Notes under the pieces: generated by a model
Seen by the model: the letters and a program-made list of their open reading frames with translations, nothing else
The model's database searches: none
Told to the model about the DNA's origin: nothing
Shown: positions 12,965 through 30,226 of the stretch, in pieces
How positions within the stretch are numbered: position 1 is the stretch's first letter
How the letters are laid out: every line of letters starts with the position of its first letter
Assembly (NCBI GenBank): GCA_039188575.1
Contig: JBCCYY010000010.1
Span: 4,836 to 68,835, forward strand
DNA length: 64,000 bases
Direction of reading: 5' to 3'
Source: Planctomycetota bacterium
GTDB taxonomy: Bacteria; Planctomycetota; Phycisphaerae; Phycisphaerales; Phycisphaeraceae
Program-made: the position numbers and the translations under genes

Positions 12965-13501
12965 TTATTCCTGCTGCGCGTTTTCAGTCGGTGTGGGCTT
13001 GCCGTGCGGCACGGGTTTGGGCTTCTGGGTCACGATCAGGTACGCCCCGACCGCCGCAAGCACGATACCCAGGAGGAACAACGGCTTGACCTGGCCCCAC
13101 TGTTTGTCCATCGTGATCGCGACCGCGGCATTCACCAGCGGGGCCCCCGCGAAGATCAGCGACATCACGACCGCTGGCTTGCCGCCCGCTCCGAACGCGA
13201 GCAGCACGCCGAACGCGCCGACGGCTCCGACGATGCCCGCGATCAGCGACCAGCTCATACCGCTGCCGGTCATCTTCCAGTCCGATCCGGTAATGAGCAG
13301 CATCACGAGCGGCGCGAGTACGGCAACGAGGAAGTACGCGATGCCGACGAAGAGGAAGGCCTTGTACCGCGCATTCGGATCACCGGGGCTCATCAGCACC
13401 TGCCCCTTGTGCAGGAAGATGCCGTAGAGCCCCCACGTGCCAATAGTCAGCAGTACGAAGAGGAGGTAGGACGATGAAGAGGAGGAGCTTTGAGCGAGCA
13501 T
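12965..13501 (-). CDS. small integral membrane protein, EamA/DMT-like transporter
   Basis: 178 aa with about five hydrophobic segments and Gly-rich DMT-like motifs (SLIAGIVGAVGAFGVLLAFGAGGKPAVV..LIFAGAP). Confidence 0.6.
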   Translation of the reverse strand: MLAQSSSSSSSYLLFVLLTIGTWGLYGIFLHKGQVLMSPGDPNARYKAFLFVGIAYFLVAVLAPLVMLLITGSDWKMTGSGMSWSLIAGIVGAVGAFGVLLAFGAGGKPAVVMSLIFAGAPLVNAAVAITMDKQWGQVKPLFLLGIVLAAVGAYLIVTQKPKPVPHGKPTPTENAQQE

Positions 13502-13509
13502 ACGGTTTC

Positions 13510-13944
13510 TCAGTTTTCTGGATCAATCACAACGAGGGCCTGGTCGATCTCTGCCGGTAACGACGCGGCCTTAAACTTGCCTTCACCGGCGGGCTTGATA
13601 GCGTAAACCACCTTGAGCGTGCCGGTTGCGATCGGGTCGGATTCGTCTGCCTTGCGGAACGCGAAGCCGTAGGTCACGGACTTGTTGGTCTTGGCTTTGA
13701 CAAAGACATCGACCGTGAAGACGTCCTCAAAGCGAAGCGGCTTCTTGTAGTCGCACGCCGCACTGACGCGGGGGAAGCCCGCTACGTCGTCGCCGATATC
13801 GCGATGCACCGATAGGCCAAGGTCGCGGAGCAGCGCGTGCTCGGCGTCTTCCATGTACCGGAAGAAGTGCGAGAAGTGCACGATGCCCGCGGCGTCGGTC
13901 TCGCTGAAGGCGACGCGTCGTGTCATGCGGAAGGTGCTAGGCAT
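13510..13944 (-). CDS. 4HBT/YbgC-family hotdog acyl-CoA thioesterase
   Basis: RRVAFSETDAAGIVHFSHFFRYMEDAEH signature; CDYKKPLRFED. Confidence 0.9.
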   Translation of the reverse strand: MPSTFRMTRRVAFSETDAAGIVHFSHFFRYMEDAEHALLRDLGLSVHRDIGDDVAGFPRVSAACDYKKPLRFEDVFTVDVFVKAKTNKSVTYGFAFRKADESDPIATGTLKVVYAIKPAGEGKFKAASLPAEIDQALVVIDPEN

Positions 13945-15221: not shown

Positions 15222-15285
15222 GGGGTTCGTCAGAGCACGAAGCGCAAGCGAGTGCCCCAGGTTCTCGATGTTCTGCGTCACTCGC

Positions 15286-16569
15286 TTACGCTTTGTGTTC
15301 CGCCAAGACTAGCGGCCTGCCGTAACTCAATGGCCTAGGCACATCGACGAACTCAGCGGTGGCTTCAAACAGCGATGTGAAGTCCGTGGACATCTTGCCG
15401 ATAAGGCAGTCGGTCAGGTCGCTGCGCAGGTGCGGGTGCTTCTTGAGGAGGTCGGCGAACGAGAAACCCTCTGCGTAGAAGGCGTACACCAGCTTGCGCA
15501 TCGCTTCGATACCGTTCTGAAACTCGTCGGTGTATTTCTCGAAGCGTTCGGCCGAAGGGTCGTCGTGCTTGAGCGCTTCGTGCACGGTGTCGGCGGCGAG
15601 TTGCCCGCTGGTGAGCGCGAGGAAGACGCCTGACGAGAACACCGGGTCGAGGAAGCCGAACGCGTCGCCCGTCAGGACTAGCCCGTCCGTTGCGCTGTGC
15701 TCTGAGCGGTAGGAGTAGTCGCCGGTCACCCATGTTTCGCCGAACTGCTCGGCGTCCTGCATGACGTCTTTCACCCACTGGTTGGATTCGATCTCGCGTT
15801 CCATCACCGCGAGCGGGTCCTTGAGCCCGTCGCGATAGAGGTAGGACCGCTCGCCGACAACACCGAGACTGATCCGATCGTCGTGCATCGGGATGTGCCA
15901 GAACCAGCCCTTCTCGGGGACGTAGGCGACGGTGGTCGCGCCTTCGTCCCGGCCCGCGCCGCGCTTACCACCCTTGTAGTAGGTCCACAGCGCGATCTTG
16001 TTGAGCTGTGGGTCGCGCTTGCGCTTCCAGCCCATCGCGTTGGCGGCGAAGCCGTTACGACCCGACGCGTCGATGGTCATCGGCGCATGAAGTTGGATCG
16101 TCTGGCCGTGCTCGTCCTTGGCCTCGATGCCGACCACGCGGCCTGTGTCGTCTTGCAGGACCTTGCTCGCTGAGACACCGAAGCGGACATCGACGCCGTG
16201 GTCATTGGCGTTGTCGGTCATCATCATGTCGAACTTCGCGCGTTCGACCTGCCAGGTCTGGCCTGCGGGGTGGCCATCGAGGTGGTCGGAGAAGTAGAAC
16301 GGCTGAGACATCCGCCCGTCCATCGTGGCGAACTGCACCGAGTACTTCCTAACGAACGCGGTCTTGTTGAGTTTGTCCACCATGCCCAGGCGCTGGAGCG
16401 TCTCGTAGCAGAAAGGCAGCAGCGACTCACCGACATGGTAGCGCGGGAAGCCCTCGCGTTCGAGCAGGACGACCCGTCGGCCGTGCTGTGCTAGCAGTGT
16501 CGCGGCAGAAGAACCGGCCGGCCCGGCGCCGACCACAATCACATCGTACTGGTTGTTTCTACTAATCAT
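15286..16569 (-). CDS. flavin-dependent halogenase-family oxidoreductase
   Basis: GAGPAG (GxGxxG), FPRYHVGESLLP, FVRKY (candidate catalytic Lys), GWFWHIP (WxWxIP), GDAFGFLDPVFSSG (FxxPxxSxG). Halogenating activity itself is inferred. Confidence 0.8.
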   Translation of the reverse strand: MISRNNQYDVIVVGAGPAGSSAATLLAQHGRRVVLLEREGFPRYHVGESLLPFCYETLQRLGMVDKLNKTAFVRKYSVQFATMDGRMSQPFYFSDHLDGHPAGQTWQVERAKFDMMMTDNANDHGVDVRFGVSASKVLQDDTGRVVGIEAKDEHGQTIQLHAPMTIDASGRNGFAANAMGWKRKRDPQLNKIALWTYYKGGKRGAGRDEGATTVAYVPEKGWFWHIPMHDDRISLGVVGERSYLYRDGLKDPLAVMEREIESNQWVKDVMQDAEQFGETWVTGDYSYRSEHSATDGLVLTGDAFGFLDPVFSSGVFLALTSGQLAADTVHEALKHDDPSAERFEKYTDEFQNGIEAMRKLVYAFYAEGFSFADLLKKHPHLRSDLTDCLIGKMSTDFTSLFEATAEFVDVPRPLSYGRPLVLAEHKA

Positions 16570-16577
16570 GGCAAATA

Positions 16578-17147
16578 CTAGGCCTGCGTACTAAATGGGT
16601 CTAGGGGAGGTAGGATTTCAATGATCTGGGCGATTGCCCGCCCGTCGGGCATCTTAAGCTCATTTTTCCGGCCGTAGAGCGACCCCTCCGTGACGTGGAG
16701 GGCTTGGCAGAGCAGCTCGTCCGGGTCGACCTCGAGGTAGGCCGAGGGGTTGGAGACGTAGGCGACACCGTGCTCGCGGAGGACCCGGCCCAGCGGGACC
16801 CTGCACTCGGCGACGAGCTCGCGGGTTTCCCCATCGAAGCAGGACAGGTCAATCCGGATCGCGCCGAACTCAGCGGGCCGGCCGTCGTCCTTGCCCATGA
16901 GCGAGACCTGGCGGTAGAGCGAGTCGCCCTCGAGCCGCTTGACGTGGACGCGGAGGGTCATGGGCTGCTTGAAATACGTCTCGAGCGTGCCGGTCATGTC
17001 GCGGTCGTGGGCCAGCAGCGTGCGATATGGCTCGGGCAGCTCCTCGGCCTCGAGGATCCGTGCGCGGGTCACGCCCTTGCTCGCGTCGCAGTCGAAGCAC
17101 GAGAGCGGGTAGAGGATGTCGCTGGTGGGGGAGTCGGTCATACTCAT
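16578..17147 (-). CDS. chorismate pyruvate-lyase-like (UbiC/DUF98 fold) protein
   Basis: LLAHDRDMTGTLE...LYRQVSL...EFGAIRI...PLGRVLREHGV...YGRKNEL...IIEILP pattern typical of the chorismate lyase fold. ATGA-coupled to the radical SAM gene. Confidence 0.65.
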   Translation of the reverse strand: MSMTDSPTSDILYPLSCFDCDASKGVTRARILEAEELPEPYRTLLAHDRDMTGTLETYFKQPMTLRVHVKRLEGDSLYRQVSLMGKDDGRPAEFGAIRIDLSCFDGETRELVAECRVPLGRVLREHGVAYVSNPSAYLEVDPDELLCQALHVTEGSLYGRKNELKMPDGRAIAQIIEILPPLDPFSTQA

Positions 17148-18517
17148 GCGTATCGCACCCCCCGGTGCTCTTCCTTGAAGAAGGCGACCAGCAGCGTATC
17201 AATCCGCAGCAGGGTCTGCCTCGGGATGATGATCTCGTCGCCCTCGATGACAAACAAGCCCTGATCGACATAGTCCTGCAGTACATCGGCCCACTTCTCG
17301 AACGGGTCGACACCGAACTTCTCGATGAACGGCTGGCGGTTGATCTTGCCGATCTTCAGCTGCAGGACCCACTCCCGTATCATCGCTTCTTCGGCATCGA
17401 TCGGCAATGCGCGGTACATCGGCTGCTCCCCGCCGGCGATGGCGGACATGTACGGCACGATGTCGTGCTGGTTCTGGTAGTGCATGCCGCCGCCTTCTTT
17501 GTCCGCACCCTCGGGCGCGGTCATGTAGCCGAAGGACGAGACGCCCAGCGCGAGCATATCGGCCCCGGACCACAGCGCATCGCGGTAGACAAACTTGATC
17601 TCGGCCTCGTCGCGCACCGCCGTGTAGGCGCTGGTGATGTCGTAGCCGTTGGCTTCGAGCGCGGCGTAGGCCTCGGTGACCCAGCGTCGCTTCGTGCCCC
17701 AGTCGGCGACCGGGGCCTCATCGCTGCCCGACTCTTTCATGTTCTTATAGATGGTGGTGTTGTAAGGCACCTCCATCTGGTAGATCGTGACCGCGTGTGG
17801 CCGCAGGTGCACGAGCGTATCGATGTTGGCCCGCCAGTTTTCATCGGTCTCGCCGAGCATGCCCGAGATCAGATCGATGTTGACCTGCTGGAAGCCGGCG
17901 TCGATCGCCCACTGGTACGCGTTGCCGACCTGCTGGCTGCGGTGGGCGCGGTTGTTGAGCTCTAGGATCTGGTCGTTGAAGTTCTCGATGCCCAATGAGA
18001 TGCGCGTTACGCCTAGTTCTTTGAGGCAGGCAAGCTTTCGGGTGCTCAGCGTGCCGGGCTCGCACTCGAAGGCGACCTCTTCGACTTCGTTCCAGTCGAG
18101 CAGGTCTTTGAGCCCGTTGAACAGGTATGTCAGCTGCTTCTCGGAGAGGTAGCTCGGTGTGCCGCCGCCGAAGTAGACGAACTTGAGCTTCCGGCCGGCG
18201 ATGCGTTCGGTCTGGGCGTACCGCCTTGCCTCTTCGAGCACCGAGTCGAGGTACTCGGTTACCTCGTCGCGCGTCTTATCTGTGTACACGCGGAAGTAGC
18301 AGAAGTGGCAACGCTTCCGGCAAAACGGGATGTGCACATACAGCCCAAGCGGCGTCCCAGGCGGAGCGGGCGTGTCAAAGATTGCCTGACCCGCGTCGCG
18401 GTGGTCCACGGACCACGTCGAGTAAAGCGGGTAATTCGAGACGAAGAAGTTGCCGACGGTGGTCTTCTTATCGTCCGCCTCGAGCACGGTCAGCCGGGTT
18501 GTGTCTTCGGTTGACAT
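17144..18517 (-). CDS. HemN-like radical SAM enzyme (coproporphyrinogen III oxidase family / class C methyltransferase)
   Basis: LYVHIPFCRKRCHFCYF (CxxxCxxC), VYFGGGTPS, RISLG, NIDLISG, LGVSSFG; HemN C-terminal domain. Confidence 0.9.
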   Translation of the reverse strand: MSTEDTTRLTVLEADDKKTTVGNFFVSNYPLYSTWSVDHRDAGQAIFDTPAPPGTPLGLYVHIPFCRKRCHFCYFRVYTDKTRDEVTEYLDSVLEEARRYAQTERIAGRKLKFVYFGGGTPSYLSEKQLTYLFNGLKDLLDWNEVEEVAFECEPGTLSTRKLACLKELGVTRISLGIENFNDQILELNNRAHRSQQVGNAYQWAIDAGFQQVNIDLISGMLGETDENWRANIDTLVHLRPHAVTIYQMEVPYNTTIYKNMKESGSDEAPVADWGTKRRWVTEAYAALEANGYDITSAYTAVRDEAEIKFVYRDALWSGADMLALGVSSFGYMTAPEGADKEGGGMHYQNQHDIVPYMSAIAGGEQPMYRALPIDAEEAMIREWVLQLKIGKINRQPFIEKFGVDPFEKWADVLQDYVDQGLFVIEGDEIIIPRQTLLRIDTLLVAFFKEEHRGVRYA

Positions 18518-18521
18518 GGGC

Positions 18522-19649
18522 TTAGTCCGCGTTGCTCGGTTTGAAGGCGTAGATGCTACCGTCCTCGGAGCCGACGACGATGAGGTCTTTAGTGACAGCG
18601 GGGCTGACGTTCATCGCGCCGCCGAGGTCGCGCTCCCAGACGGTACTACCATCCTTTACTTCAATGATAGAGAGCCGGCCGCCGGCCGAGCCGAAGATTG
18701 CACGCGACTTGGCGATGACCGGGGCACCTTCGACGCCGCCGCGGGTGCGGATGTCCCATAGCTTCTCGCCGGACTTACGATCGACGGCGTAGAGCCGTCG
18801 GCCGCGCGATCCGATGAGCAGCGTGTCGCCTGACAGCGCGGGCGAGCCGATGAACGGGAAATCCCGGTCGCGGAACCGCCAGGCGACTTTCTTCTTGTTG
18901 AGATCGATCGCGAGCACCTCGCCCTGCATGTGCCCGATGTAGGCGTGGCCGTTGCTGAGCGCGGGGGTTCCTGCGACCTCGCCGCCGAGCTCGATCTGCG
19001 CGGTGCCTTCGCCGGTCTGGAGGTCGATGAGGTGCATCATGGTGTCACAGCCCCCGAGGACAATCGTATTATCGTCCAGCACGATGCCGCAGTTGACGTA
19101 ATCGCCTGTCTCGTAGGCCCAGACCTGCTCGCCGGTCTCGGCGTTGATGCAGTAGAGCTGGCCGTCGTGGCTGCCGACGATGACAACTTTTTGTCCTTTG
19201 CGGGCGGTGACCGCTGCCTCGCCGGCGATCCGTCCCTCGGTCTTGAACTGCCATTTGGGCTCGCCTGTCTTGGTATCGACCGCGAGCAGCACGCCGCCGT
19301 CTGTTCCGATGTAGACGACGCCGTCGTCGTAGATCGGCGAGGCATCGATGAGGCTCTCGGTCGCGAGCTTCCATTTCTCTTTGCCGGTCTTCGCGTCGAT
19401 CGCATGCAGGTGCTTATCTTCTGAACCAACGTAGACGACGCCGTCCACGATGATCGGCGAAGACAGCACGGCCCCGTCGGTTTTGTACGTCCACATGGGC
19501 TGGTAGCTGTTCTGCAGCTGTACATCCGCGGTACCCAGCCCCTGCAGACCGCCGCGCGGGTGCGGCCAGTTGGTTGGCTCTGCGTGGGCGACCAAGCCTG
19601 ATGTAGCCAGTACCATCAGGGCGAGTAGGAAAAAGTTGTTTCGCATCAC
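18522..19649 (-). CDS. secreted PQQ-binding-like (BamB-like) beta-propeller protein
   Basis: Signal peptide, W...RG start, eight repeats of the type SSP.I.DG.VY.GS.D..L.A.D..TG..KW. Confidence 0.9.
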   Translation of the reverse strand: MMRNNFFLLALMVLATSGLVAHAEPTNWPHPRGGLQGLGTADVQLQNSYQPMWTYKTDGAVLSSPIIVDGVVYVGSEDKHLHAIDAKTGKEKWKLATESLIDASPIYDDGVVYIGTDGGVLLAVDTKTGEPKWQFKTEGRIAGEAAVTARKGQKVVIVGSHDGQLYCINAETGEQVWAYETGDYVNCGIVLDDNTIVLGGCDTMMHLIDLQTGEGTAQIELGGEVAGTPALSNGHAYIGHMQGEVLAIDLNKKKVAWRFRDRDFPFIGSPALSGDTLLIGSRGRRLYAVDRKSGEKLWDIRTRGGVEGAPVIAKSRAIFGSAGGRLSIIEVKDGSTVWERDLGGAMNVSPAVTKDLIVVGSEDGSIYAFKPSNAD

Positions 19650-20812
19650 ATTTCCCCCCCAAACGCTGCGGCATAAAGCGCTTCAAAGTCTTCGGCTTTG
19701 ATCTCGCGTGGATTGAAGTTGGCCGTCCATTGTCCGGCAGCTTTCTCTGCTAATTCGGGGATTGCTTCGGGACTTGCGATGGGGCCGAGCTTTGTTTCCA
19801 GACCTGCTTTCGTGAGCAAGCGAGTCAGTGTTTCGATCAAAGGATCGACACCCGACACCCCGGCAAGTTCCGCGAGCGTCTCATAGGACGCCTTGGCCTC
19901 TTCATTCTTCGCGTTGAAGCGGATGACGTGTGGCAGCATCAGGCCGACAGCCTGGCCATGGATCGTGCCGAACTTCGCGGTCAGCGGGTTCGCGCAGGAG
20001 TGCGCCGCACCAAGCATGCTGTTCTCGATCGCTAGCCCGGCATAGGCCGCGCCAAGCAGCATGTCGCCGCGGGCCTTGGTATCGCCCGGGTCTTCGAGCA
20101 CCCTGGGCAGTGCGTGAATGGCCAGCGCGAACGACTCCGCCGCGTAACGCATTGAGACATCATTGCGGCGCGTACAGACGTACGACTCAACGGCGTGCGT
20201 GATCGCATCGATACTCGTGCACGCCGCGACGCTGGCGGGCTGGGTCAGGGTCAGTGCGGGGTCAAGCAGCGCGATGATGGGCAGGGCCTTTGGGTCGCCG
20301 CAGGCCATCTTCATGTGCGTGTCTTCATCCGCGATCAGCGCGTAGGACTGCGCTTCGCTGCCCGTGCCGTGCGTGGTGGGCACGGCGATCAGCGGCAGCA
20401 TCTTCTCGACGGGCTTGTCGGCGTGGTGGTAGTCCGCCATCACGCCGCCATTGGTATAGATGAAGTTACAGCCCTTGGCGGTGTCGATCGCCGAGCCACC
20501 GCCCAGGCCAATTAAAAGATCCGGCTCGAATACACTTGCGGCTTCGACCGCCTCGGTCACATCGGCGGTCGAGGGATTCTCGTGGACACGTGTGAATGTC
20601 GCCGCTTCTAGGCCGGCGGCTTTTACGATGTCCAGCCCGTGCTCGGTGTGCCCGGCCTGCGTGACGCCGGGGTCGCTAATGATCATGACGCGCTTGACAC
20701 CAAGCTCGGCACAGAGTGTGCCGAGGTGTTCCAACGCACCGTCCCCGAACACCAAGCGTGTGCCGGGCGTGTGGTCGAGGTCCGCTGGGGCAGGCGTCGT
20801 GATCGTCGTCAT
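19646..20812 (-). CDS. iron-containing alcohol dehydrogenase
   Basis: GLGGGSAIDTAK, AVPTTHGTGSE, DAITHAVESY, GAAHSCANPL, HGQAVG. Start placed at the ATG overlapping the upstream stop (ATGA at 20809-20812). Confidence 0.95.
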   Translation of the reverse strand: MTTITTPAPADLDHTPGTRLVFGDGALEHLGTLCAELGVKRVMIISDPGVTQAGHTEHGLDIVKAAGLEAATFTRVHENPSTADVTEAVEAASVFEPDLLIGLGGGSAIDTAKGCNFIYTNGGVMADYHHADKPVEKMLPLIAVPTTHGTGSEAQSYALIADEDTHMKMACGDPKALPIIALLDPALTLTQPASVAACTSIDAITHAVESYVCTRRNDVSMRYAAESFALAIHALPRVLEDPGDTKARGDMLLGAAYAGLAIENSMLGAAHSCANPLTAKFGTIHGQAVGLMLPHVIRFNAKNEEAKASYETLAELAGVSGVDPLIETLTRLLTKAGLETKLGPIASPEAIPELAEKAAGQWTANFNPREIKAEDFEALYAAAFGGEM

Positions 20813-22257
20813 GCACCCGCCCCGGCCAACGCGTGATGGATCGCGCGGCGCTGATAGAGAAACTCGAACAAGTTGCCCTCGTGCGGCTGGTCCCACTGCG
20901 CACTGCTCGTCGGCGCTGGGCCGAGGTTCAGCCGCTGGATATCACGGCAACGCAGGAGCTCGTTCGTGAACCGATCGTCGTGCGTGATCGCACTGACGAC
21001 CAGCGTCCCGCCGATCTTGCTCAGCACCTCGCTCTGTGGCACCTCGACGACCGATGCGAACGGGAACATAAACTCAGTGTTACAGAGCACGTGCTCCCAC
21101 GAGTCACAGTGGATCAGCGTGGGCAGCACGTAGGTCCGACCCTCAAAAGTGGAAAGCCGAGACGACCCACCACGGACCGCCTCGGTCAGGTCCGCGGCCC
21201 CCGGCGACTGCAAACCATTGGTAATCTGTGCGTCCGCCCACTCGGCGACCTTCGGGTTCGCAATTGCGGACAGCTTCGCGCTAGCGTCATCGTTGGGCAG
21301 CGGCGTGATTTGCGCGAGCTTCTCGGCGATGGCCTGGGCCAACTCCTTGCCGTGGCTGGGCACGATGATGGTCGAAGCATTGATGCAGGACCGGCCGGAG
21401 TTCGCCGCAATCGACTGCACGATGACATCGACGTACTTGGGCCAGTTCGCGATCTCGTCTTCGCCGATGATGACCTTGGACCAGCCCGGGCCGTGTACCT
21501 CGACGCGTTCATCGCCGCCATAGCGCTTCATAGTCGCTTCGCCTCCGAAGATGATCGAGCGGTCGCAGAGGTCCATAACGGCGGCCGAGCCCTCGTGGTC
21601 GGTCGGGTAGAACCCAAAGGCCTCTTCGGGCACGCCCGCGGCGATCATCGCCTGCACGACGCGGTAGGGCGTCCACGGCTCATCGCTACCCGGCTTGAGG
21701 ATCACCGGCGTCTTGAACGCGATCGACGGCAGCCAGAGCGCGTTCACGCCCGGCGAGTTGCTCGGCATCACCATGCCCAGTGCCTGCGTTGTGGGGTAGA
21801 AGCTCACTGCTGTGTTGCCGACTTCGCCGAAGCCGGCGTCGATCACCGACGGGTCGATCCCGCGCGTGAGGCCTCGGACGATGTCTTCGAGGTGCGTCAG
21901 CGCTTCATGCACCTTTGCCATGTTCGCACGGACCAGCGTGTGCGGCAGGCCGCTCGTGCGTGACAGCTGCTGGACGTAATCGCCCGGCGACTGGACCGCG
22001 TCACCCAGCGGCAGATCGGCGTTCATGAACAGATCGCCCGCCTTGGCGGACATCTCGATCAGCTCCTCGCAGGGGATCGCATCGAGCGCGGCCTTGGCCT
22101 GGGCGAACTTGTGGCTGTCGCGCTTGAGCAGGCCCGCGTTGCCGACGGACATCTCGGCGACGGTCTCGCCTGTTCCGAGGTCCTTGATCGGGCGGGTGTT
22201 GACGCTGCGGTAGGTGGTTCCGAGGCGGAGGATCGGGATATGGGGGAGGCTGGTCAT
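20809..22257 (-). CDS. aldehyde dehydrogenase / acyl-reductase family protein (GriD/EhpG/LuxC-like)
   Basis: VMPSNSPGV..LW, VILKPGSDEPWT, IFGG, HGPGWSK, SGRSCINAS (catalytic Cys region), EFMFPF. Directly downstream of the EhpF/GriC-like gene. Confidence 0.8.
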   Translation of the reverse strand: MTSLPHIPILRLGTTYRSVNTRPIKDLGTGETVAEMSVGNAGLLKRDSHKFAQAKAALDAIPCEELIEMSAKAGDLFMNADLPLGDAVQSPGDYVQQLSRTSGLPHTLVRANMAKVHEALTHLEDIVRGLTRGIDPSVIDAGFGEVGNTAVSFYPTTQALGMVMPSNSPGVNALWLPSIAFKTPVILKPGSDEPWTPYRVVQAMIAAGVPEEAFGFYPTDHEGSAAVMDLCDRSIIFGGEATMKRYGGDERVEVHGPGWSKVIIGEDEIANWPKYVDVIVQSIAANSGRSCINASTIIVPSHGKELAQAIAEKLAQITPLPNDDASAKLSAIANPKVAEWADAQITNGLQSPGAADLTEAVRGGSSRLSTFEGRTYVLPTLIHCDSWEHVLCNTEFMFPFASVVEVPQSEVLSKIGGTLVVSAITHDDRFTNELLRCRDIQRLNLGPAPTSSAQWDQPHEGNLFEFLYQRRAIHHALAGAGA

Positions 22258-22356
22258 GTCTGGATACAACTAATGGGTGTACGTATTATTGCAGGTATTA
22301 CACAACAGCCTGCATTTTGCACTGGGTGTGCATGAACAAGACGATAAAAAACGCGT

Positions 22357-23481
22357 TTAGTAAACGCCTTCAACGATTTTTTGCGTGCTGGCGCCGAACG
22401 GGCGGACCTCAGATACGCCGTCCCAGGGGTATTTCTCGGCCCAGGGTTCAACACGCCGGGCCTCGTCGCGCTCGAGGAAGCGGGGCATGAACAGCTCCTT
22501 GGTCAGCGTGGTCAGCTCGACCCGGCCGAACTCGCCGTAGGGCACGGTCAAAGCGGTGTTGTCCGGGTCGACGACACGGAGCACGGCCCTGGGCTGGGGG
22601 CAGTAATAGGTCGTCTGCCAGTGGTTCTCTTTGATGTTTGGGCGGTGGGGCGCGACGCCCATGAGCGTGTTGCCGTAGGTCGGGTAGAAGCCGACGCCCG
22701 CGGTGCCGGCACAGTCGCCATCGGGTTGCTCGCAGACCTCTTCGATGAGGAAGCGGGTGTACTGCGGGTCCATCGTGGTGCCACCGACGAACGCGCCCTT
22801 GATACCGAGCTTGACAAGCGACATCCGCTCGCTGAGCGCTTCGAGCAGCTTGGGCGTGGTGAAGAGCGCAGTCACCTCGCGGTGACGGAGGATGGTCATC
22901 GCCTGATCGATGGCGTGGCCCATGTACGCCTTAGCCTGATTGGGCTGCCCTTCGCGGATGACGCGCTTGACCCAGCGCGGGTCGAGGTCCACAAAGTAGA
23001 CCGACGAGTCGCGGCAGTGCGCGAGGTGCTCGATCGCCAGGCGGAGCCGCCGCGGGCCGGTCGGGCCGATCATCAGCCAGTTGCCACCGCGTGGGAAGTG
23101 ATCGTCGCGTAGGGTCTTGGAGAACTGGGTGTAGTCGTGCTGGAAGTCGCCCCAGTTGAGCCGCTGCTTGGGCATGCCGGTGGTGCCGCCGGTCTCAAAG
23201 ACGTTGTAGGGCTTGCCGGCAAACGCACGGGGGATCATCTGATCGTGCGGGATGTAGCGGAGCACCGTGTCCGCATCGAAGTGGTCAAACGCGGCGATCA
23301 AATCATCGAAGGTCTGGATCGACGCAGGGTCGATCCCGTGCTCCTTGGCGTAGCTGATCCAGTAGGGCGTGCCGGTATCTTCGCTGAAGTGCCAAGCGAT
23401 GGTCTCTCGCATGTGTGCATCAAGCGATTCCCTCGCCGCGGCGGCCGGGTCGGTGGTGGTAGGGGTGGTCGTGCTAGTCAT
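22357..23481 (-). CDS. EhpF/GriC-like aryl-carboxylate adenylating enzyme (ANL superfamily, lacks C-terminal subdomain)
   Basis: WHFSEDTGTPYW, ETGGTTGMPK, PTGP, DLDPRWVKR, DQ...IL, FTTP, GGT, YG, YGEFGRV, PRFLERD: collinear with the motifs I recall for Pantoea EhpF. The ATG at 23481 overlaps the SSS stop. Confidence 0.8.
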   Translation of the reverse strand: MTSTTTPTTTDPAAAARESLDAHMRETIAWHFSEDTGTPYWISYAKEHGIDPASIQTFDDLIAAFDHFDADTVLRYIPHDQMIPRAFAGKPYNVFETGGTTGMPKQRLNWGDFQHDYTQFSKTLRDDHFPRGGNWLMIGPTGPRRLRLAIEHLAHCRDSSVYFVDLDPRWVKRVIREGQPNQAKAYMGHAIDQAMTILRHREVTALFTTPKLLEALSERMSLVKLGIKGAFVGGTTMDPQYTRFLIEEVCEQPDGDCAGTAGVGFYPTYGNTLMGVAPHRPNIKENHWQTTYYCPQPRAVLRVVDPDNTALTVPYGEFGRVELTTLTKELFMPRFLERDEARRVEPWAEKYPWDGVSEVRPFGASTQKIVEGVY

Positions 23482-25117
23482 GTTTCTTCGGGAAGAACCG
23501 CTCGATGGTGGATTGTTCCGGGGCCTTCGTGGCAAGGGATACTAGGACCAGCGAGCCGACCGAGGCGGCAAAGATAAAGATCGCCGGCATCATGCCCACG
23601 ACGAGGTATTTGGCCTTGGTCTGTTCGCCGAACACCTTTGGGCCGGTGTTGATGATGTCGTCCCAGAAGAACAGTGACCAGGTGCCGACGGTCGCGATCA
23701 CGCAGGCGATCGCACCTGCCTTGGTCGTCCGTTTCCAGTACAGCGCCGCAAACACCAGCGGGAACAGGCAGCCAAAGCCTGTGAAGCACCACACACCCAG
23801 GTCGAAGACGTTCGTATCCAGCAGCAGCAGCGACAATACGTACGACACGGCGACGATGACGAGGACGAATCCTCGGGCCAGCCAGATCATCTGCTTGTCG
23901 CTGAAACGGTCTTTACCTGCCACCCGTGCGACGATATCGTTGGTAAACATCGTGCCCAGGCAGACGAACTGGGAATCGAGCGAGGACATGATCGCAGCGA
24001 GGATGCCGGCGGTGAGCAGGCCGGTCACCAGCGGGTTCTCGACGAGCGTCCGCACGATCGCGCCGAGAGCCGCATTGGCGTTGGGCGTGCCCGCGTCCGT
24101 CAAGGGCAGACGCAGGTCGCCCGCCGCGTACAAACCCGCCGCCCACATGCCCACGATCACGCAGGGCACCCAGACCAGCATCATGAAGAACGGGTGCAGC
24201 ACCACGGTTGCCCTGAAGGTCTTCGCCTTCTTGGCCGTCATCCAGTGCTGAAAAAGGTGGGGGAACATCCCCACCGACAGCGGGATGACGAAGTAGCTGA
24301 AGAAGTAGGTCTTACCCATCAGGGAACGGTCGGCATTCTCCGGTGACTCTCTGAGCACCATCTTCGAGGCTTCGACCGGGCCACCCAATGCGTTGCTGAT
24401 GAGGATAAACGCGGTGACGCCCATGATCATGAAGACGATCGTCTGGAAGGTATTGGCCCATGCTGCCGAGCGCACTCCGCCGAACAAGACGTAGCACAAC
24501 ACAACGAAGCAGACCACCAGGGCCGTTAGCCATGGCGGGATACTGCCGGAAATCCGCGCATGCGTGCCGTCATCGTTGAGTACCGGAAACAGGTCTGGGA
24601 ACATGCCCATTGTGATCGGGACCATTGTCTTGCAGGCCGAAATGATGCCAACGAGCAGATAGGGGATCACGAGCGCGACGAGGATCGGGAAGAGTATCCA
24701 GCCCAGGGCGGGCGACTCGAAGCGGTCGCGGAAGAACTGGACCTGTGTCACGTAGCCGTATCGCTTGCCGATGGCCCAGAGCTTGATGCCGATGACGAAA
24801 AAGATGGCGGAGTGCAGCAGCCCGGAGTAAGACGCCATCAGCCCGTAGACGCCGACGCCGAGTTCGAAAGATTTGCCCGACGAACCGACCAGTGCGAAGC
24901 CGGTCATCGTTGTGCCGAAGACGGACATCAGCAGCAGGAACGGCCCGATGGACCGCGAAGCGACAAAGTAGTCCTTACTCGTACCTCGGAAGAAGGTAGC
25001 GGAGAAGATACCCAGCAGCAGCAGCAGGGCGAGGTAGCCGCAGATCACCCACAGTGGGAGCTTCGAGACATCGGCCACAATCAGATATTGCGGACTGGCA
25101 ACCAGCGACACAGTCAT
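23474..25117 (-). CDS. sodium:solute symporter (SSS; PanF/MctP-like)
   Basis: DYFVASRSIG, TTMTGFALVGSSG, AGILAAIMSSLDSQ, about 13 transmembrane segments. Confidence 0.95.
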   Translation of the reverse strand: MTVSLVASPQYLIVADVSKLPLWVICGYLALLLLLGIFSATFFRGTSKDYFVASRSIGPFLLLMSVFGTTMTGFALVGSSGKSFELGVGVYGLMASYSGLLHSAIFFVIGIKLWAIGKRYGYVTQVQFFRDRFESPALGWILFPILVALVIPYLLVGIISACKTMVPITMGMFPDLFPVLNDDGTHARISGSIPPWLTALVVCFVVLCYVLFGGVRSAAWANTFQTIVFMIMGVTAFILISNALGGPVEASKMVLRESPENADRSLMGKTYFFSYFVIPLSVGMFPHLFQHWMTAKKAKTFRATVVLHPFFMMLVWVPCVIVGMWAAGLYAAGDLRLPLTDAGTPNANAALGAIVRTLVENPLVTGLLTAGILAAIMSSLDSQFVCLGTMFTNDIVARVAGKDRFSDKQMIWLARGFVLVIVAVSYVLSLLLLDTNVFDLGVWCFTGFGCLFPLVFAALYWKRTTKAGAIACVIATVGTWSLFFWDDIINTGPKVFGEQTKAKYLVVGMMPAIFIFAASVGSLVLVSLATKAPEQSTIERFFPKKHD

Positions 25118-25362
25118 TGTGCGTCTCCGTCGGGCTGTTCAGCATCGCCATCGATTTCATCCGCCCACGCCTCGACCTCGCTGGGCCAAGCGAACCTCAC
25201 CGCGAACGCCCAAAGCGTGACCGCGCACATTGAGAAACCCGCGTGGTACGCCAACGAAACAGGGATAAAACCGAACACCAGGTCATTGTTGTCCCAGTTC
25301 CAGAAGTCCTGGTGCAGGATGAACATCAGGCAGAAAATGATGAGTATGATTTTTTTGCCCAT
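25114..25362 (-). CDS. DUF3311-like small membrane partner of the SSS transporter
   Basis: 82 aa, LHQDFWNWD...FGFIPVSLAYH, two transmembrane segments; ATGA-coupled to the SSS gene. Confidence 0.8.
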   Translation of the reverse strand: MGKKIILIIFCLMFILHQDFWNWDNNDLVFGFIPVSLAYHAGFSMCAVTLWAFAVRFAWPSEVEAWADEIDGDAEQPDGDAQ

Positions 25363-25456: not shown

Positions 25457-27019
25457 TTACTGCGCATCCTCCGCTATCGCGTAGAGGTGGGACTGCGTCG
25501 CGACGTAAAGCACGCCGTTCGCCGCGATCGCACTGGAGTAGATCGGCGCGGGGAACTCGACCTCGGCGAGCAGTTTCTTCTCCGGGCCGGCTTCAAGGAT
25601 CGTCAGGATGCCGTCCTCGTTGCCGAGGAAGACTTTGCCGTCCGCGACAAGCGTGGAGGACCAGATATGGCCGAGCGTGTCGTGGTGCCACTTCTTCTCG
25701 CCGGTCTTTGCGTCTAGGCAATAGAGGTTGCCGGAGTAGTCCGCGGCGTAGACCAGGCCTTTGTGAACGCTCACGGTTGAGATCGTGCGGTCGATTTCTG
25801 TGAAGTCCCAGACGACCTTCGCGATACCGTCGGTAACCTGGGTCGGGTCGATGGCGATGAGTCGGCCGACCCCCTCGCCGTGCTCGGGGTCCTGGCCGAT
25901 TGGCGCGTAGATCAAGCCGTCGTGGATAACCGGCGTCGCGATGTACTCGCTGGGGCCCGGCGGGGTGGCGTAGGGGATCGGCTCGCCTGCCTCATCGAAG
26001 CGGTAGGAAGGCAGGTTGCCGTCGACCTTCCATCGCTCGGGGAGGATGTCGAAGTCGTCCTCGTCCTTGACGGTCTTGGTGTCGTAGCCGTAGACAAAGC
26101 CGTCGCCAGCCCCGAAGACGACGGTGGCCTTGCCGTCGAAGGTACCAAACGATGGGCTGGACCAGTTGCAGTGCAGGATGTTCGGACCGATTCCGCTTCC
26201 ATCTTCGCCGACGAGCTCGCCGGTCTCCGCGTCGAGTGCGATGAGCGAGGGCGCGTTGGGTGCCGGGACATTGATGTGCGACCAGTCCACGCCGTTGGAG
26301 GTCGCGACGTAGAGCACGCCGTCCACGGCAAGGCAGGAGTTGGAGGTGATGTTGTGCGGGAAGACGTTGAGCTCCTCTCGCATGTCGTACTTCCAGATGA
26401 CGTCGGCGTCCTTGGGACCGATCTCGATGGGCGGCTTGCCCTGGCCGGCGTAGTAGGCGCTCTCGTCCTGGAAGCCCTGGTTTCCGTTGGCCATGCCGTT
26501 GAGGTCGAGGCAGACGATCTCGCAGAGGTTGCTGACGACGTAAACCCGGTCGCCGTAGACCGCGGGCGAGGAGCACATGCCTAGGAACTCCCAGTCGCTG
26601 ACCTTGCCCGCCCCGAGCTTGTGCAGGCTGAACTCCCAGATGAGTTCGCCGGTCTTTTCGTCGAAACAGTAGAAGTTGGAGCGGTCACCCTGGTACTTGG
26701 GATCGCGGGGCGTTTCGTTGTTTGTACCGACCAGCACGCGGCCCTGCGAAACCACGGGGTTTCCAAAAGCCTGGCTGCCGAGCTTGGCGACCCACTTGAT
26801 CTTCTTTTTCGTGTCCGGGTCGATCTTACCGGTGCGCCCGATCTCTTCGCCGGGGGCGAAGTCGAAGGGGATCGGCCCGCTATCTGGCGCGACCATGTTG
26901 CGGGAGCCATTCAAACCCCAGACGGGCCAGTCTTCTGCGGAAGAGGAGGATGTAACCGCAGATGAACACAGATAAACGCAGATAAAGGCAGCAAGCCCAG
27001 TCGTTTGTTTTTTCATCAT
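25457..27019 (-). CDS. secreted PQQ-binding-like beta-propeller protein
   Basis: Signal peptide, EDWPVWG...RNM, repeated W.. / SSP / LYCLDAKTGEKKW blades. Confidence 0.9.
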   Translation of the reverse strand: MMKKQTTGLAAFICVYLCSSAVTSSSSAEDWPVWGLNGSRNMVAPDSGPIPFDFAPGEEIGRTGKIDPDTKKKIKWVAKLGSQAFGNPVVSQGRVLVGTNNETPRDPKYQGDRSNFYCFDEKTGELIWEFSLHKLGAGKVSDWEFLGMCSSPAVYGDRVYVVSNLCEIVCLDLNGMANGNQGFQDESAYYAGQGKPPIEIGPKDADVIWKYDMREELNVFPHNITSNSCLAVDGVLYVATSNGVDWSHINVPAPNAPSLIALDAETGELVGEDGSGIGPNILHCNWSSPSFGTFDGKATVVFGAGDGFVYGYDTKTVKDEDDFDILPERWKVDGNLPSYRFDEAGEPIPYATPPGPSEYIATPVIHDGLIYAPIGQDPEHGEGVGRLIAIDPTQVTDGIAKVVWDFTEIDRTISTVSVHKGLVYAADYSGNLYCLDAKTGEKKWHHDTLGHIWSSTLVADGKVFLGNEDGILTILEAGPEKKLLAEVEFPAPIYSSAIAANGVLYVATQSHLYAIAEDAQ

Positions 27020-27103: not shown

Positions 27104-29488
27104 TTATGGCTTAGGTTCTACTTTCACGTTGTCTACATACACGCGGTGTTTGGACTGCGGGGAGAAGCCGTAGATGCCCGGGCTGCCCTCGGTGTGGCAG
27201 ATCGGGACCTTGACCTCGATGGTCCAGTCCGCGGGCTCGTCCTCGCCCTTGGGCCAGGCCTTGCCGTATACAGTGCCCGTGCCGTCTTCATTAGGGACGA
27301 CCGCCGACTTGATCGTGTACCAGTTCTTGGCAGACCATTTGAACGGCACGGTCTCGGCGATGCGGTTGTGGTTGGAGCTGACCTCGATGGCCTGCTTGTT
27401 GCCATCCAGCACGATGAGGTAGCGCTGGTTGATGACGCCGACGACGCTCATGCCCCGGCGGTTGCCATCACTCATCACATCCGCCTGCACGGTGTAGCCC
27501 GTGTCATCGGGGTGGCCCAGAAAGATCATGGAACGCTGGAAGAGGACACGGTCAAGCGTCTTGGCGAGCACTTTGTTGTCGCCATCGTCGTACGGGTCGT
27601 CGCGGACCTGCCACTTCAGCCGGGCCCCGATCCAGGGCAGCGGCGGGTGGGCGTAGGCGACGCTGTCGTTCTGATCAGTCAGGCTCAACTCGAACGCCTG
27701 GAAGTCGAAGCTGTACGGCGGGACGGGGAGGATGCGCCCGCGCGTTGTGCCGGATATGTTCGCGGGGTTAGATGCTTTGAACGCACCGGCCGAAGGCGCA
27801 TTGGCATCCGACGCGGTGATGGTTGTTCCGTCTATGCTCGCATCCATCTCGACCTTGACCCGCGCGGTCGGTGGAATGAATTTTTTGAATGTCATACCTG
27901 TAACACTGTCGGACAGCTGCATGCCATGACGATCAATGGTCTTGGTAGTTGGTGTGACGGCCTCGCCGGGCTTGAGCAGGAATTCTGCAGGCGTGATCAT
28001 GTACTTAACCGGAGACACTTTAAAGGTCGGTGACGGTCTACTTGCCAAAGCTGTTGTCCCGCCGCTGTCGTTGCCGAAGCAGTAAAGCTTGTCGGTGGTA
28101 TGCACGTAGATTTTGCCGTTCCACACGGTGACGTTGCCAATGCATTTGCCTGCGAGCTTGGTCTGCACGGTATCCGTCGGCTCGGCACGTCCGGGGGTGA
28201 CAACCGACAGGCCATCGTTCCAGTAGGGGATGTACAGCTTGCCGTCCGCGTAGAGCGGGGAGGCGTGCAGCTGGCTCGCGCCTTGTTTCTTCTGCCAGAG
28301 CGTATGGCCGGTCTTGGCGTCCATCGCGATGAGCCTGCCGTCTAGAGCACACTGGTAGACGACACCATCGACGATGACAGGCGAGCTGGTAAACATGCTG
28401 ACATCGTTGTTGCGCCAGACGACCAGGTCGTCTTCGATCTTGACCGGCTTCTCATCACTTTGTAGCGCTTGTACCAGCGCCTGGTCGGCACGGATGGCGA
28501 TCATGTAGCCCCGGCCGGAGTCGCCGACGTTTTCCTTACCGTGCACCTGGATGATCAGGTCGTCGCTAAGCACGTCGGGCGTGCCGTTGTTGTAGATGAT
28601 GGGCGAGGCGTTGACGCCGCCGAGGGACATCTGGTAGCGCCAGAGCGGCTGGCCGGTGCGGATGTTGACGCAGACGAGGTTGCCGCAGCCTGTACCGGCG
28701 TAGAAGACCCGGTAGCCCTGACGGTTTTCGATATGAGGGGTCGAGAACGACGAGTCGGCCAGGAAAGGTGGCCCCACGCCGGGCGTGGAGGACCAGATCA
28801 GCTCGCCGGTATTCTTATCGAAGGCGTAGAAACGGTTTCGTGCCGGCCCCTCGGATCCCCAGTTCGTGGAGATGATGTTGACGATGGCGAGCTGGCCGTC
28901 GATGGTGACGACGCCGGTCCGGCCGTTGGGGAAGGTCAGCCGGCCGTACTGCTCCTGCAGTGAGATGCGCCAGAGCTCGTTGCCATCCCGGTCTAGTGAG
29001 ATGAGCAGGCCCGGCGAGGTGTGGATGAATACGTTGCCGGTCTCGGGGTCGATGGTTGGCCCGCCGATGCTGTAGCGGTTGTAGACGATGTCGGAGATGA
29101 AGTCGGCGTAAGAGCGTGACCAGACCTCTTCGCCGGTCTCGGGATCGAGGCAGTAGAGGGTCTCGGTGAGCTCAGCGCCCTCGCCGGGGTAGCCGAGGAC
29201 AAAGAGTCGGTTGCCCTCGGGGTACTCGGCGATGGCGGCGGTGCCACGGCCCGGCACATCCAGAGTCCAGCGGAGGTTGGCGTCGTCGCCTTCAATGATG
29301 GCTTGCTTGGGCAGACCGGTCTGGTTGCTGATGCCGGTCTGGTCGATGCCGCGCCAACTGAGCTTGCCCTTGATGGGGCTGTTCGGGCCGCCTTCCGGCG
29401 GAGGGTGCAAGATTCCGGTCTTTGTGCCACAGCCAACCGCGAAGGCGATGAGGAGGAAGAGCGGAGCGATGCGCGGGATCAGAGACAT
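27104..29488 (-). CDS. PQQ-binding-like beta-propeller lipoprotein with C-terminal beta-sandwich (lectin/DUF1080-like) domain
   Basis: Lipobox FAVGC; SWRG start of propeller; LYCLDPETGEEVW, SSPVIVDGVVY, LHASPLYADGKLY; C-terminal beta-rich domain ending VYVDNVKV. Confidence 0.85.
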   Translation of the reverse strand: MSLIPRIAPLFLLIAFAVGCGTKTGILHPPPEGGPNSPIKGKLSWRGIDQTGISNQTGLPKQAIIEGDDANLRWTLDVPGRGTAAIAEYPEGNRLFVLGYPGEGAELTETLYCLDPETGEEVWSRSYADFISDIVYNRYSIGGPTIDPETGNVFIHTSPGLLISLDRDGNELWRISLQEQYGRLTFPNGRTGVVTIDGQLAIVNIISTNWGSEGPARNRFYAFDKNTGELIWSSTPGVGPPFLADSSFSTPHIENRQGYRVFYAGTGCGNLVCVNIRTGQPLWRYQMSLGGVNASPIIYNNGTPDVLSDDLIIQVHGKENVGDSGRGYMIAIRADQALVQALQSDEKPVKIEDDLVVWRNNDVSMFTSSPVIVDGVVYQCALDGRLIAMDAKTGHTLWQKKQGASQLHASPLYADGKLYIPYWNDGLSVVTPGRAEPTDTVQTKLAGKCIGNVTVWNGKIYVHTTDKLYCFGNDSGGTTALASRPSPTFKVSPVKYMITPAEFLLKPGEAVTPTTKTIDRHGMQLSDSVTGMTFKKFIPPTARVKVEMDASIDGTTITASDANAPSAGAFKASNPANISGTTRGRILPVPPYSFDFQAFELSLTDQNDSVAYAHPPLPWIGARLKWQVRDDPYDDGDNKVLAKTLDRVLFQRSMIFLGHPDDTGYTVQADVMSDGNRRGMSVVGVINQRYLIVLDGNKQAIEVSSNHNRIAETVPFKWSAKNWYTIKSAVVPNEDGTGTVYGKAWPKGEDEPADWTIEVKVPICHTEGSPGIYGFSPQSKHRVYVDNVKVEPKP

Positions 29489-29573: not shown

Positions 29574-29595
29574 CCTTTTGCATCTTACGCACGCT

Positions 29596-30084
29596 ATGAC
29601 GCCACCCAAGCCCCCGATTGATGATCCGCACCGCCGCCGGCTGCCGCCGCTGCTACGGCGTTGTTGGTACGGTTTAAACCAGGCGTTTCGTAAGCGGCTG
29701 GCGATACTTGGGATCACGCCCAATCAGTTCACGGTCCTGCGCTGGCTGGAGGAAGATGATGGCGGCGGCGTCCGCCAAGCTGAGATCTGCTCGCGGATGG
29801 CCAGCGACCCCAACACCATCGCGGCCCTGGTCGAGCGGATGCAGTCCGACGGGCTGATCAAGCGGAAAACCGACCCGACGGACCGCCGGGCCCGCCTGAT
29901 CTCGCTGACCCCCAAGGGCCGACGCGTCTATGCCAAGGCCCGCCCGGTCGCGGTCGAACTGCAGGAAGAGGTGCTCAAGGCGATCCCCGCGGGTGAACGC
30001 GAGAGGCTGCTCGAGCAGATCGAGATCCTCGCGGATGCGTGTCAGGTCGCGCTGGAAGGCGAGGCGGAATCATCCGCGACTTAA
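29596..30084 (+). CDS. MarR-family transcriptional regulator
   Basis: GITPNQFTVLRWL...RQAEICSRM.SDPNTIAALVERMQSDGLIKR..DPTDRRARLISLTPKGR. Confidence 0.95.
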   Translation: MTPPKPPIDDPHRRRLPPLLRRCWYGLNQAFRKRLAILGITPNQFTVLRWLEEDDGGGVRQAEICSRMASDPNTIAALVERMQSDGLIKRKTDPTDRRARLISLTPKGRRVYAKARPVAVELQEEVLKAIPAGERERLLEQIEILADACQVALEGEAESSAT

Positions 30085-30226
30085 ATCCTGATCTAGAATG
30101 ATGCTGTTGCAATTTCAGGGTGGGTGTGGAAAACGTTCAAGCGGCCGTGTATAACTACACTCGGTTAGCCGTCTGTGGTGAGGTGCAAGGTGTTTGCCCC
30201 ATGCGTATGGCTGGAGAAAGGATCAC

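Follow-up and report, generated by a model that had tools for sequence, protein, structure and literature searches.

Do three consecutive genes of a planctomycete, encoding an adenylate-forming enzyme, a protein resembling aldehyde dehydrogenases (ALDH) and an iron-containing alcohol dehydrogenase (Fe-ADH), reduce a carboxylic acid to an alcohol and, if so, which acid? The question was raised by a stretch of 64,000 nucleotides from a Planctomycetota bacterium of the Phycisphaeraceae (GenBank assembly GCA_039188575.1, contig JBCCYY010000010.1, positions 4,836 to 68,835 of the forward strand), referred to here as the window, the G+C content of which is about 60%. A first-pass annotation, made from the sequence alone, had likened the first two products to EhpF/GriC and EhpG/GriD, the aryl-carboxylate reductases of phenazine and grixazone pathways, and had proposed an acid-to-aldehyde-to-alcohol module. 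The homologies found in the present analysis supported a reductive trio; the trio was not, however, an independent unit, being the middle part of a conserved 17-gene system controlled by a MarR-family regulator.

The three genes and their products

All of the long open frames on the minus strand between positions 7686 and 29488 belonged to one tightly packed gene row, in which the adenylase (22357..23481, 374 aa), ALDH-like (20809..22257/22269) and Fe-ADH (19646..20812, 388 aa) genes were consecutive, all on the minus strand. The adenylase ATG fell within the final codons of the symporter gene upstream, overlapping its stop by 8 nt (ATGACTAG). The reading of the junctions also confirmed the ATGA overlap, noted previously, of the ALDH stop and the Fe-ADH start, and the Fe-ADH stop overlapped the start of the next gene, coding for a secreted propeller (18522..19649), in the form GTGA/TGATG. 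The sole sizeable gap in the module, of about 90–100 nt, separated the adenylase from the ALDH-like gene. A weak hairpin of 6 bp, whose loop contains the stop codon of the adenylase and which is followed by a T-run (GTTTTTTATC), was found there at 22353-22367 on the minus strand, at the same point where the operon is split in genome G319 (see below); the overall fold of this spacer was not unusual (z = -1.0). The listed start of the ALDH-like gene, which ends at 20809, was a TTG at 22269 (486 aa), with an alternative ATG at 22257 (482 aa). The latter was considered likelier, since the orthologues begin at the MTSLPHIP... position (M..(L/I)PHIP.LR.G).

The first enzyme was assigned, by its homology to EhpF, as a stand-alone adenylase of the EhpF/GriC type having only the N-terminal domain of the ANL superfamily. 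Its residues 23-374 were aligned by phmmer with residues 23-366 of the EhpF chain (PDB 3L2K/3HGU; E 1.6e-38), a full-length match to the structure, and Streptomyces proteins named "arylcarboxylate reductase" by NCBI were 33–34% identical to it over 95% of its length, bearing out the EhpF/GriC homology first claimed. Pfam gave a sub-threshold match to AMP-binding only, and detected no AMP-binding_C or C-terminal ANL domain, a point in which the PaaK-like ligase of the same operon differs. The FETGGTTGMPK loop, the YGNTLMG motif, the ERD hinge and the C-terminal GVY were invariant across 14 orthologues of 350–375 aa; since all of these end about 35 residues past the hinge Arg-Asp, the C-terminal ANL subdomain would be missing, as in EhpF. 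Homology, ANL motifs, the truncated end and the ALDH partner thus place this protein, as far as sequence can tell, within the EhpF/GriC kind. More than 8000 relatives of the adenylase were found, with 60–65% identity across phyla, and the adenylase-ALDH pair keeps 50–65% between Planctomycetota and Verrucomicrobiota.

Other members of the adenylase family were observed in different surroundings (loci and genomes of the survey are labelled L and G). A second family of EhpF-like adenylases of about 30–33% identity (L044-L049; genomes G169, G235, G032, G132 and others) had no ALDH partner in the genome; at L044, the paralogue (~33%) was beside an MMPL transporter, a PMT_2 glycosyltransferase, a peptidase U32 and a class-III aminotransferase. 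The neighbours of such ~33% paralogues, and of lone or ALDH-only adenylase orthologues (46–52%), were uninformative (GH38-like, macro-domain, MMPL and peptidase U32 proteins). On Streptomyces plasmids (L130, L219) an "arylcarboxylate reductase" gene was found directly upstream of a type I polyketide synthase (PKS) with no ALDH partner, and at L132 another was among futalosine-pathway genes. From these last contexts, some members of the family may load aryl starter units instead of feeding a reductase.

The second protein was assigned to the EhpG/GriD-type reductases of the ALDH superfamily on the basis of its Pfam Aldedh match (7.7e-16; 58 bits vs a cut-off of 23) and its homology to the partner ALDHs of EhpF/GriC-like adenylases. 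As stand-ins for GriD and EhpG, annotated plasmid homologues were used, each with an adenylase-ALDH pair: BLASTP matched the protein to the EhpG-like ALDH of an ehp-type phenazine cluster on an E. coli plasmid (E 3e-33, residues 2-476) and to the partner ALDH of a Streptomyces PabB/DAHP-synthase cluster (E 8e-39, residues 68-473). These colinear matches, which agreed with the EhpG/GriD homology proposed earlier, took in an N-terminal extension and a C-terminal PH(E/D)G motif (PHEGN/PHD); generic ALDHs lack this motif and align only over residues ~160-420. The AlphaFold2 (AF2) model (pLDDT 90.5) presented a complete ALDH fold, with TM scores of 0.75–0.79 to many ALDHs, and the PDB profile search and Foldseek, when asked for a nearer solved relative, returned generic ALDHs only. 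The Pfam LuxC match was below its cut-off (17.7 vs 21 bits).

When compared with solved ALDHs, the protein kept the equivalents of Asn169 (PSNSP, oxyanion), Lys192 (KPG, cofactor) and Cys302 (GRSCINAS, catalytic), and carried a His (HGPGWSK) in place of the general base Glu268, where ALDHs have an ELGGKS-type motif. This pattern of retained Cys and Asn with the Glu replaced by His was invariant in 16/16 orthologues; the same position was occupied by Gln in the EhpG-like protein and by Arg in the Streptomyces partner ALDH. Without the general-base Glu, this protein is unlikely to act as a purely oxidative, hydrolytic ALDH. The ALDH fold, the Cys and Asn without the Glu, and the colinear partner homology are those expected of a putative EhpG/GriD-type protein.

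The third protein matched Pfam Fe-ADH (8.3e-48, 162.6 bits) and ADH_Fe_C (1.2e-34, 120.2 bits), both over the cut-off, and in the PDB it matched methanol and lactaldehyde enzymes and the alcohol dehydrogenase (ADH) domains of AdhE, down to E 2.5e-56. Its alignment to 8zrl contained the GGGSAID NAD motif and the iDaiTHavE, aaHs and iHG motifs, with all four Asp/His/His/His metal ligands kept; by these features it is a standard group-III enzyme. In genome G237, a locus (L024, 9206-11908 on the minus strand) carried an in-frame fusion of 900 aa with the AdhE architecture, in which an ALDH-like part (16-486) and an Fe-ADH part (512-890) were joined by a linker of ~25 residues. This fusion is a single case, and it could be a sequencing artefact.

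Taken together, these features suggest that the trio is quite probably a carboxylate-to-alcohol reductive module. Following the precedent of GriC/GriD and general ALDH chemistry, the EhpF/GriC-type adenylase would use ATP to convert an aromatic acid into the acyl-AMP. The Cys of the ALDH-fold protein would attack this intermediate to form a thioester, which would not be hydrolysed because the hydrolytic Glu is absent, and NAD(P)H would reduce the thioester with release of the aldehyde; this would be the ALDH half-reaction in reverse, as for the chemistry proposed for GriD. The translationally coupled Fe-ADH would finally take the aldehyde to the benzylic alcohol.

An alternative is that no aldehyde is released, either because the acyl-enzyme passes its acyl group to an ester or amide acceptor, or because the pathway runs oxidatively from alcohol to aldehyde, thioester and acyl-AMP, which with PPi would give ATP and the acid and in this way conserve energy. 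A Glu-less ALDH holds a thioester and could in principle transfer the acyl group, an adenylase without the C-terminal ANL domain would be open to atypical chemistry, and the Streptomyces homologues directly upstream of PKS genes have no ALDH partner. Nevertheless, the precedent of GriC/GriD is reductive, a hand-over of the aldehyde to the ADH is suggested by both the fusion of the ALDH-like protein with the Fe-ADH and the ATGA overlap, and the uptake-type symporter encoded upstream fits the consumption of an acid better than its production. This alternative was therefore judged very improbable.

The 17-gene system and its inheritance

Around 130 loci surrounding adenylase orthologues were gathered from Planctomycetota, Verrucomicrobiota and a few other phyla, and their neighbours were counted in the non-redundant loci with enough flank. 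The adenylase was followed by the ALDH-like gene in 64 of 102 loci and by the Fe-ADH gene in 54 of 98, and it was preceded by genes for a 520-aa propeller (73/100) and a 794-aa propeller (70/95). The order of the trio recurred in Planctomycetales ZRK34, in an 8-Mb planctomycete, in a verrucomicrobial soil contig and in dozens more loci.

Co-inheritance was analyzed in one fixed set of 301 Planctomycetota genomes. Adenylase orthologues were present in 57 of these genomes and ALDH-like orthologues in the identical 57, and the co-occurrence held where the two genes were ~20 kb apart (G074) or far apart on one chromosome (G043). A halogenase-like protein of the same row had strong orthologues in 56/57 of the reductase-positive genomes vs 0/244 of the rest; the corresponding counts were 43/57 vs 0/244 for a 189-aa chorismate-lyase-fold protein and 57/57 vs 9/244 for the 520-aa propeller. 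Outside Planctomycetota, 23 of 25 carriers had the halogenase-like gene elsewhere in the genome. Synteny and co-inheritance ruled out a chance adjacency of the trio.

The order of the whole row was also found in distant Planctomycetota, and that of its back end, from the GT4 to the FtsX gene, was matched in L016, L019, L023, L224, L226 and L228. The position of the MarR gene was conserved in relatives, and the DUF3311 and symporter pair was also present in L007-L009. In some other Planctomycetota genomes the adenylase and ALDH-like genes had been relocated together. In the genomes examined outside Planctomycetota the row was split into a front half ending with the adenylase and a back half, both in the same genome; in G319 (L226) the back half begins with the ALDH-like gene. 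In many species of planctomycetes and verrucomicrobia, the 17 genes are inherited together as one system.

In the complete genome G043 the system was scattered: the adenylase (L037) was alone beside GH38-like and macro-domain proteins, the ALDH-like gene was distant on the same chromosome, and the halogenase-like gene (C1:4479838-4481082) had an in-frame TAA. Additionally, halogenase-like proteins of ~50% identity were observed in Acidobacteriota, Poribacteria, Latescibacterota, Gemmatimonadota and Armatimonadota (L139-L218), usually with radical SAM, thioesterase, PaaK-like, GT4 and ABC genes and mostly with no adenylase/ALDH pair within 7 kb.

In the window, the MarR-family regulator (29578..30084; Pfam MarR_2 and MarR) was encoded divergently on the plus strand, and all of the genes that it faces were on the minus strand. 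The first gene of the operon (27104..29488) codes for a lipoprotein of 794 aa, with a lipobox AVGC, a PQQ_2-like propeller (Pfam PQQ_2 1e-29) and a C-terminal jelly-roll-like region. It was followed by a gene for a secreted PQQ_2/BamB-like beta-propeller of 520 aa (25457..27019; Pfam PQQ_2, signal peptide visible), then by that of a DUF3311 small membrane protein, the presumed partner of the symporter (25114..25362; Pfam DUF3311 1.2e-6, just under the cut-off), and by the Na+/solute symporter (SSF) gene itself (23474..25117; Pfam SSF 6.1e-37). Downstream of the trio were the genes for a third secreted PQQ_2-like propeller of 375 aa (Pfam Beta-prop_ACSF4 2.8e-69, PQQ_2 3.9e-46), a HemN/HemW-like radical SAM protein (17144..18517; Pfam Radical_SAM 2.6e-24), with NCBIfam matches to HemW, HutW and HemN all under the cut-off, the 189-aa chorismate-lyase-fold (DUF98/UbiC-like) protein (16578..17147), assigned from a PDB profile match and an AF2 model, and the putative flavin-dependent halogenase (15286..16569; Pfam Trp_halogenase 2.5e-32). 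The remaining genes, assigned with Pfam and NCBIfam, encode a GT4 glycosyltransferase (13923-15281), a 4HBT/YbgC-type thioesterase (13510-13944), a 178-aa membrane protein (12965-13501), a PaaK-like CoA ligase (11611-12876), a LolD/MacB-type ABC ATPase (10898-11614) and a duplicated FtsX permease (7686-10901).

The operon is immediately followed by a minus-strand gene (1225-7122) for a protein of 1965 aa with DUF4011, AAA_11/AAA_12 helicase, MTES_1575 restriction-endonuclease-like and DUF3320 domains, apparently a large helicase-nuclease with no relation to the cluster. Beyond the MarR gene there were two genes (30194-32024), the second with an N-terminal methylation (pseudopilin-like) motif, and then three further PQQ_2/BamB-like propellers (32101-33306, 33340-34710 and 34726-36075), giving six propellers in 18 kb. 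A protein with PSCyt1/PSD4/PSCyt3/PSD2 (DUF1592/1588/1585) domains and then a DUF1552 (HXXSHH) protein, a typical planctomycete pair, were encoded at 41324-45309 on the minus strand. At 52430-55276 on the plus strand, one frame of 948 aa combined a SASA esterase N-terminal domain (29-233), DUF6288 (237-571) and HEAT repeats, a layout in agreement with a separate earlier note of a chimeric gene at this position.

Neighbouring genes and the substrate

Six lines of evidence point to a hydroxybenzoate-type aromatic acid as the predicted substrate. The annotated plasmid relatives of the adenylase all had genes of chorismate-derived aryl-acid pathways as neighbours (phenazine, PabB with DAHP synthase, isochorismate synthase and futalosine). 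The halogenase-like protein, whose GWFWxIP motif and Lys69 were invariant among orthologues and whose NCBIfam match to CmlS (6.6e-60) was under the cut-off, is co-inherited with the reductase as given above, and so, less completely, is the 189-aa protein. For the latter, the PDB profile search found 2nwi (E 6e-4), and with its AF2 model (pLDDT 88.9) Foldseek gave TM scores of 0.66–0.78 to 2nwi and ~0.52 to the E. coli chorismate lyase (UbiC). In many verrucomicrobial loci the place of the SSF symporter was taken by a major facilitator superfamily (MFS) transporter, the best family of which was that of the aromatic acid/H+ symporters, followed by MhpT and PcaK. The best NCBIfam matches of the MarR protein were BagL/FevM and HpaR-type aromatic-acid regulators, those of the PaaK-like ligase were PaaK, FlxY and BagE, and those of the thioesterase were aromatic-acid systems, all under the cut-off. 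Furthermore, Planctomycetales strain 10988, with adjoining chorismate-lyase-like and brominase genes, makes 3,5-dibromo-p-anisic acid (bioRxiv 10.1101/723874). This strain was not listed in a halogenase-like-alignment scan of genome contigs, and the tie of its baaA/baaB genes to this kind of operon is one that we infer.

On these grounds the likeliest substrate would be 4-hydroxybenzoate or a halogenated derivative, compounds that the first-pass annotation had suggested for assay and that the co-inheritance favours. The acid would probably have two sources, one being synthesis from chorismate by the lyase-fold, halogenase-like, PaaK-like and 4HBT proteins of the operon, and the other uptake by the DUF3311/SSF transporter. 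The alcohol might, more speculatively, be glycosylated by the GT4 enzyme and exported by the ABC/FtsX system toward the three secreted propellers. The full reading, namely a two-component reductase and an ADH acting on an aromatic (halo)hydroxybenzoate, was given a probability of about 0.55.

The transporter also bears on an alternative in which a small aliphatic acid (acetate-, propionate- or lactate-like) enters the cell through it and is activated and reduced in a salvage or electron-sink route, while the tailoring genes serve otherwise. In favour of this are the overlap of the symporter stop with the start of the adenylase, an arrangement (small membrane protein, SSF symporter, ANL enzyme) reminiscent of the acs-yjcH-actP operon of E. 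coli, the weak NCBIfam matches of the SSF symporter to the monocarboxylate transporters MctC/MctP, and the nearest solved relatives of the Fe-ADH, which use small alcohols (methanol, lactaldehyde, propanediol). This route nevertheless appears unlikely: the contexts of the annotated EhpF/GriC relatives are without exception those of aryl acids, the importer is elsewhere swapped for the MFS protein nearest to aromatic-acid symporters, and the co-inheritance of the halogenase-like gene, with that of the lyase-like gene nested in it, would be hard to account for.

The back half of the operon raises another alternative, in which a fatty or lipid acid is reduced to the aldehyde and the alcohol, glycosylated by the GT4 enzyme and exported to the envelope by the MacB-type ABC/FtsX system, loosely like the export of heterocyst glycolipids by DevBCA. 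The GT4, the YbgC-type acyl-CoA thioesterase, the small membrane protein and the LolD/DevA/MacB-like ATPase with FtsX do share the operon, and the ALDH-like protein has the weak LuxC match. This match is under the cut-off, however, and is not accompanied by one to LuxE; the cluster has no fatty-acid synthase, acyl carrier protein or LuxD genes, the genes inherited along with the pair encode a halogenase-like flavoprotein and a chorismate-lyase-fold protein, and the known members of the family act on aromatic acids. A lipid substrate was thus held to be somewhat less probable still than a small aliphatic one.

Several observations weigh against the assignment of a hydroxybenzoate-type reductase. 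The adenylase is only 31–37% identical to EhpF and GriC-like proteins and the ALDH-like protein only 23–28% to the ALDH partners of EhpF/GriC-like adenylases, and in about one third of the loci the ALDH gene does not adjoin the adenylase. The 189-aa protein has no Pfam match, its chorismate-lyase fold is also that of GntR effector domains, and 14 of the 57 reductase-positive genomes have no gene for it. Pairs of DUF3311 and SSF proteins resemble transporters of small aliphatic monocarboxylates, and the family matches of the transporter, the MarR protein and the halogenase-like protein are all far under the curated cut-offs. The Fisher values for co-inheritance take no account of the relatedness of the genomes, and a search for transcripts found the stretch in DNA metagenome runs only.

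Relation to known systems

The literature search found no paper describing the 17-gene system. To our knowledge, phosphopantetheine-independent two-component carboxylate reductases come from just two antibiotic or pigment pathways and have received little biochemical characterization. The elements that appear to be new are the co-inheritance figures, the ALDH::Fe-ADH fusion, the replacement of the transporter, the map of split operons, the fold of the 189-aa protein and the possible link to bromo-anisic acid. The pair presented here forms a strongly conserved clade linked to an importer, its own ADH, a halogenase-like enzyme and secreted propellers, and biocatalysis could draw on this clade for putative reductases that need no carrier protein. 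Its acid-to-alcohol step, well delimited and with few substrates to try, would offer a testable way into a widespread gene system of several phyla, and the only reported planctomycete bromo-aromatic would fall within a larger pathway.

The genes of that compound, baaA and baaB, resemble part of the row in that a chorismate-lyase-like gene is beside a flavin halogenase gene, as at 15286-17147 in the window; the report of BaaA/BaaB (bioRxiv 10.1101/723874) makes no mention of a reductase, an ADH or propellers. The fungal anisyl cycle, with an aryl-alcohol oxidase and an intracellular aryl-alcohol dehydrogenase, combines intracellular reduction of (chlorinated) anisyl compounds with their extracellular oxidation (PMC8140971), and the planctomycete 3,5-dibromo-p-anisic acid is a brominated analogue of such compounds. 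The present system might conceivably be a bacterial counterpart of this redox cycle, which we consider improbable. A halogenated 4-hydroxybenzyl or anisyl alcohol would be made, exported by ABC/FtsX, possibly as a glycoside, and then either oxidised by the secreted PQQ-like propellers, which come without pqq genes, or used by them as a small-molecule partner; the acid would be re-imported by the SSF or an aromatic-acid-type importer and reduced again by the trio. If so, the periplasm would receive reducing power or a cofactor at the expense of cytoplasmic ATP and NAD(P)H, and 3,5-dibromo-p-anisic acid would be the oxidised form of the shuttle. The enzymes of the fungal cycle are unrelated GMC flavoproteins, so that the parallel is one of analogy only, and the oxidoreductase role of the propellers is putative.

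With the LuxC/LuxE fatty-acid reductase, the pair shares the logic of an acyl-AMP-forming enzyme (~370 aa) followed by an ALDH-superfamily reductase (~480 aa) with a catalytic Cys. LuxE/LuxC itself was rejected, as there was no LuxE match, the LuxC match was under the cut-off, and no LuxD, luciferase or lux genes were found in the window. The type I carboxylic acid reductases (CAR; Nocardia/Mycobacterium Car, with the A-PCP-R domain order) share the net reaction of acid, ATP and NADPH to the aldehyde; these are, however, single proteins of 1200 aa that need phosphopantetheinylation and have an R domain of the short-chain dehydrogenase/reductase type, whereas the reductase described here has the ALDH fold. 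A type I CAR was also discarded, since Pfam detected no carrier-protein or R domain in the three proteins, and the label of phosphopantetheine-independent enzyme, given at first, is a fair one. In AdhE, as here, an ALDH-fold thioester reductase is followed by a group-III Fe-ADH, and the Fe-ADH matched the ADH domains of AdhE with E 1e-36 to 1e-45. AdhE uses acyl-CoA as substrate and has an ALDH domain from a different branch; in the present system the acyl donor would be the acyl-AMP from a dedicated adenylase.

The closest precedents are the two pairs named at the outset. EhpF/EhpG, from the D-alanylgriseoluteic acid pathway of Pantoea agglomerans Eh1087 (3HGU, 3HGV, 3L2K), likewise consist of a short ANL adenylase without the C-terminal domain and a Glu-less partner with the ALDH fold. 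In the griseoluteic acid pathway, an aryl carboxylate is reduced to a hydroxymethyl group. In the present system, identity is only ~30% for the adenylase and ~23% for the ALDH-like protein, phz genes are absent from the genome, and the pair is linked with an importer, an Fe-ADH of its own and secreted propellers, with 50–65% conservation across phyla, unlike a sporadic antibiotic gene. The passage of PMC10179220 that cites Suzuki et al. 2007 describes GriC/GriD of Streptomyces griseus (grixazone) as a two-protein system which, through the acyl-AMP and with no carrier protein, converts 3-amino-4-hydroxybenzoate to the aldehyde in an ATP-dependent manner. The two-protein logic is shared, the comparison of sequences having been made with annotated relatives of GriC/GriD; there are no griH/griI genes here, and the grixazone pathway goes no further than the aldehyde, in contrast to the coupling with an ADH seen here. 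The absence of phenazine and grixazone genes stated in the first-pass annotation was borne out in the window and also in the 95%-complete genome, where neither a PhzF-family match over the Pfam cut-off nor a GriH-type dehydroquinate synthase was found. The pair described here therefore differs from the known EhpF/EhpG (GriC/GriD) members by this lack of phenazine and grixazone genes, by an importer and an ADH of its own, by a setting of 17 genes with secreted propellers in several phyla, and by its unusually strong conservation.

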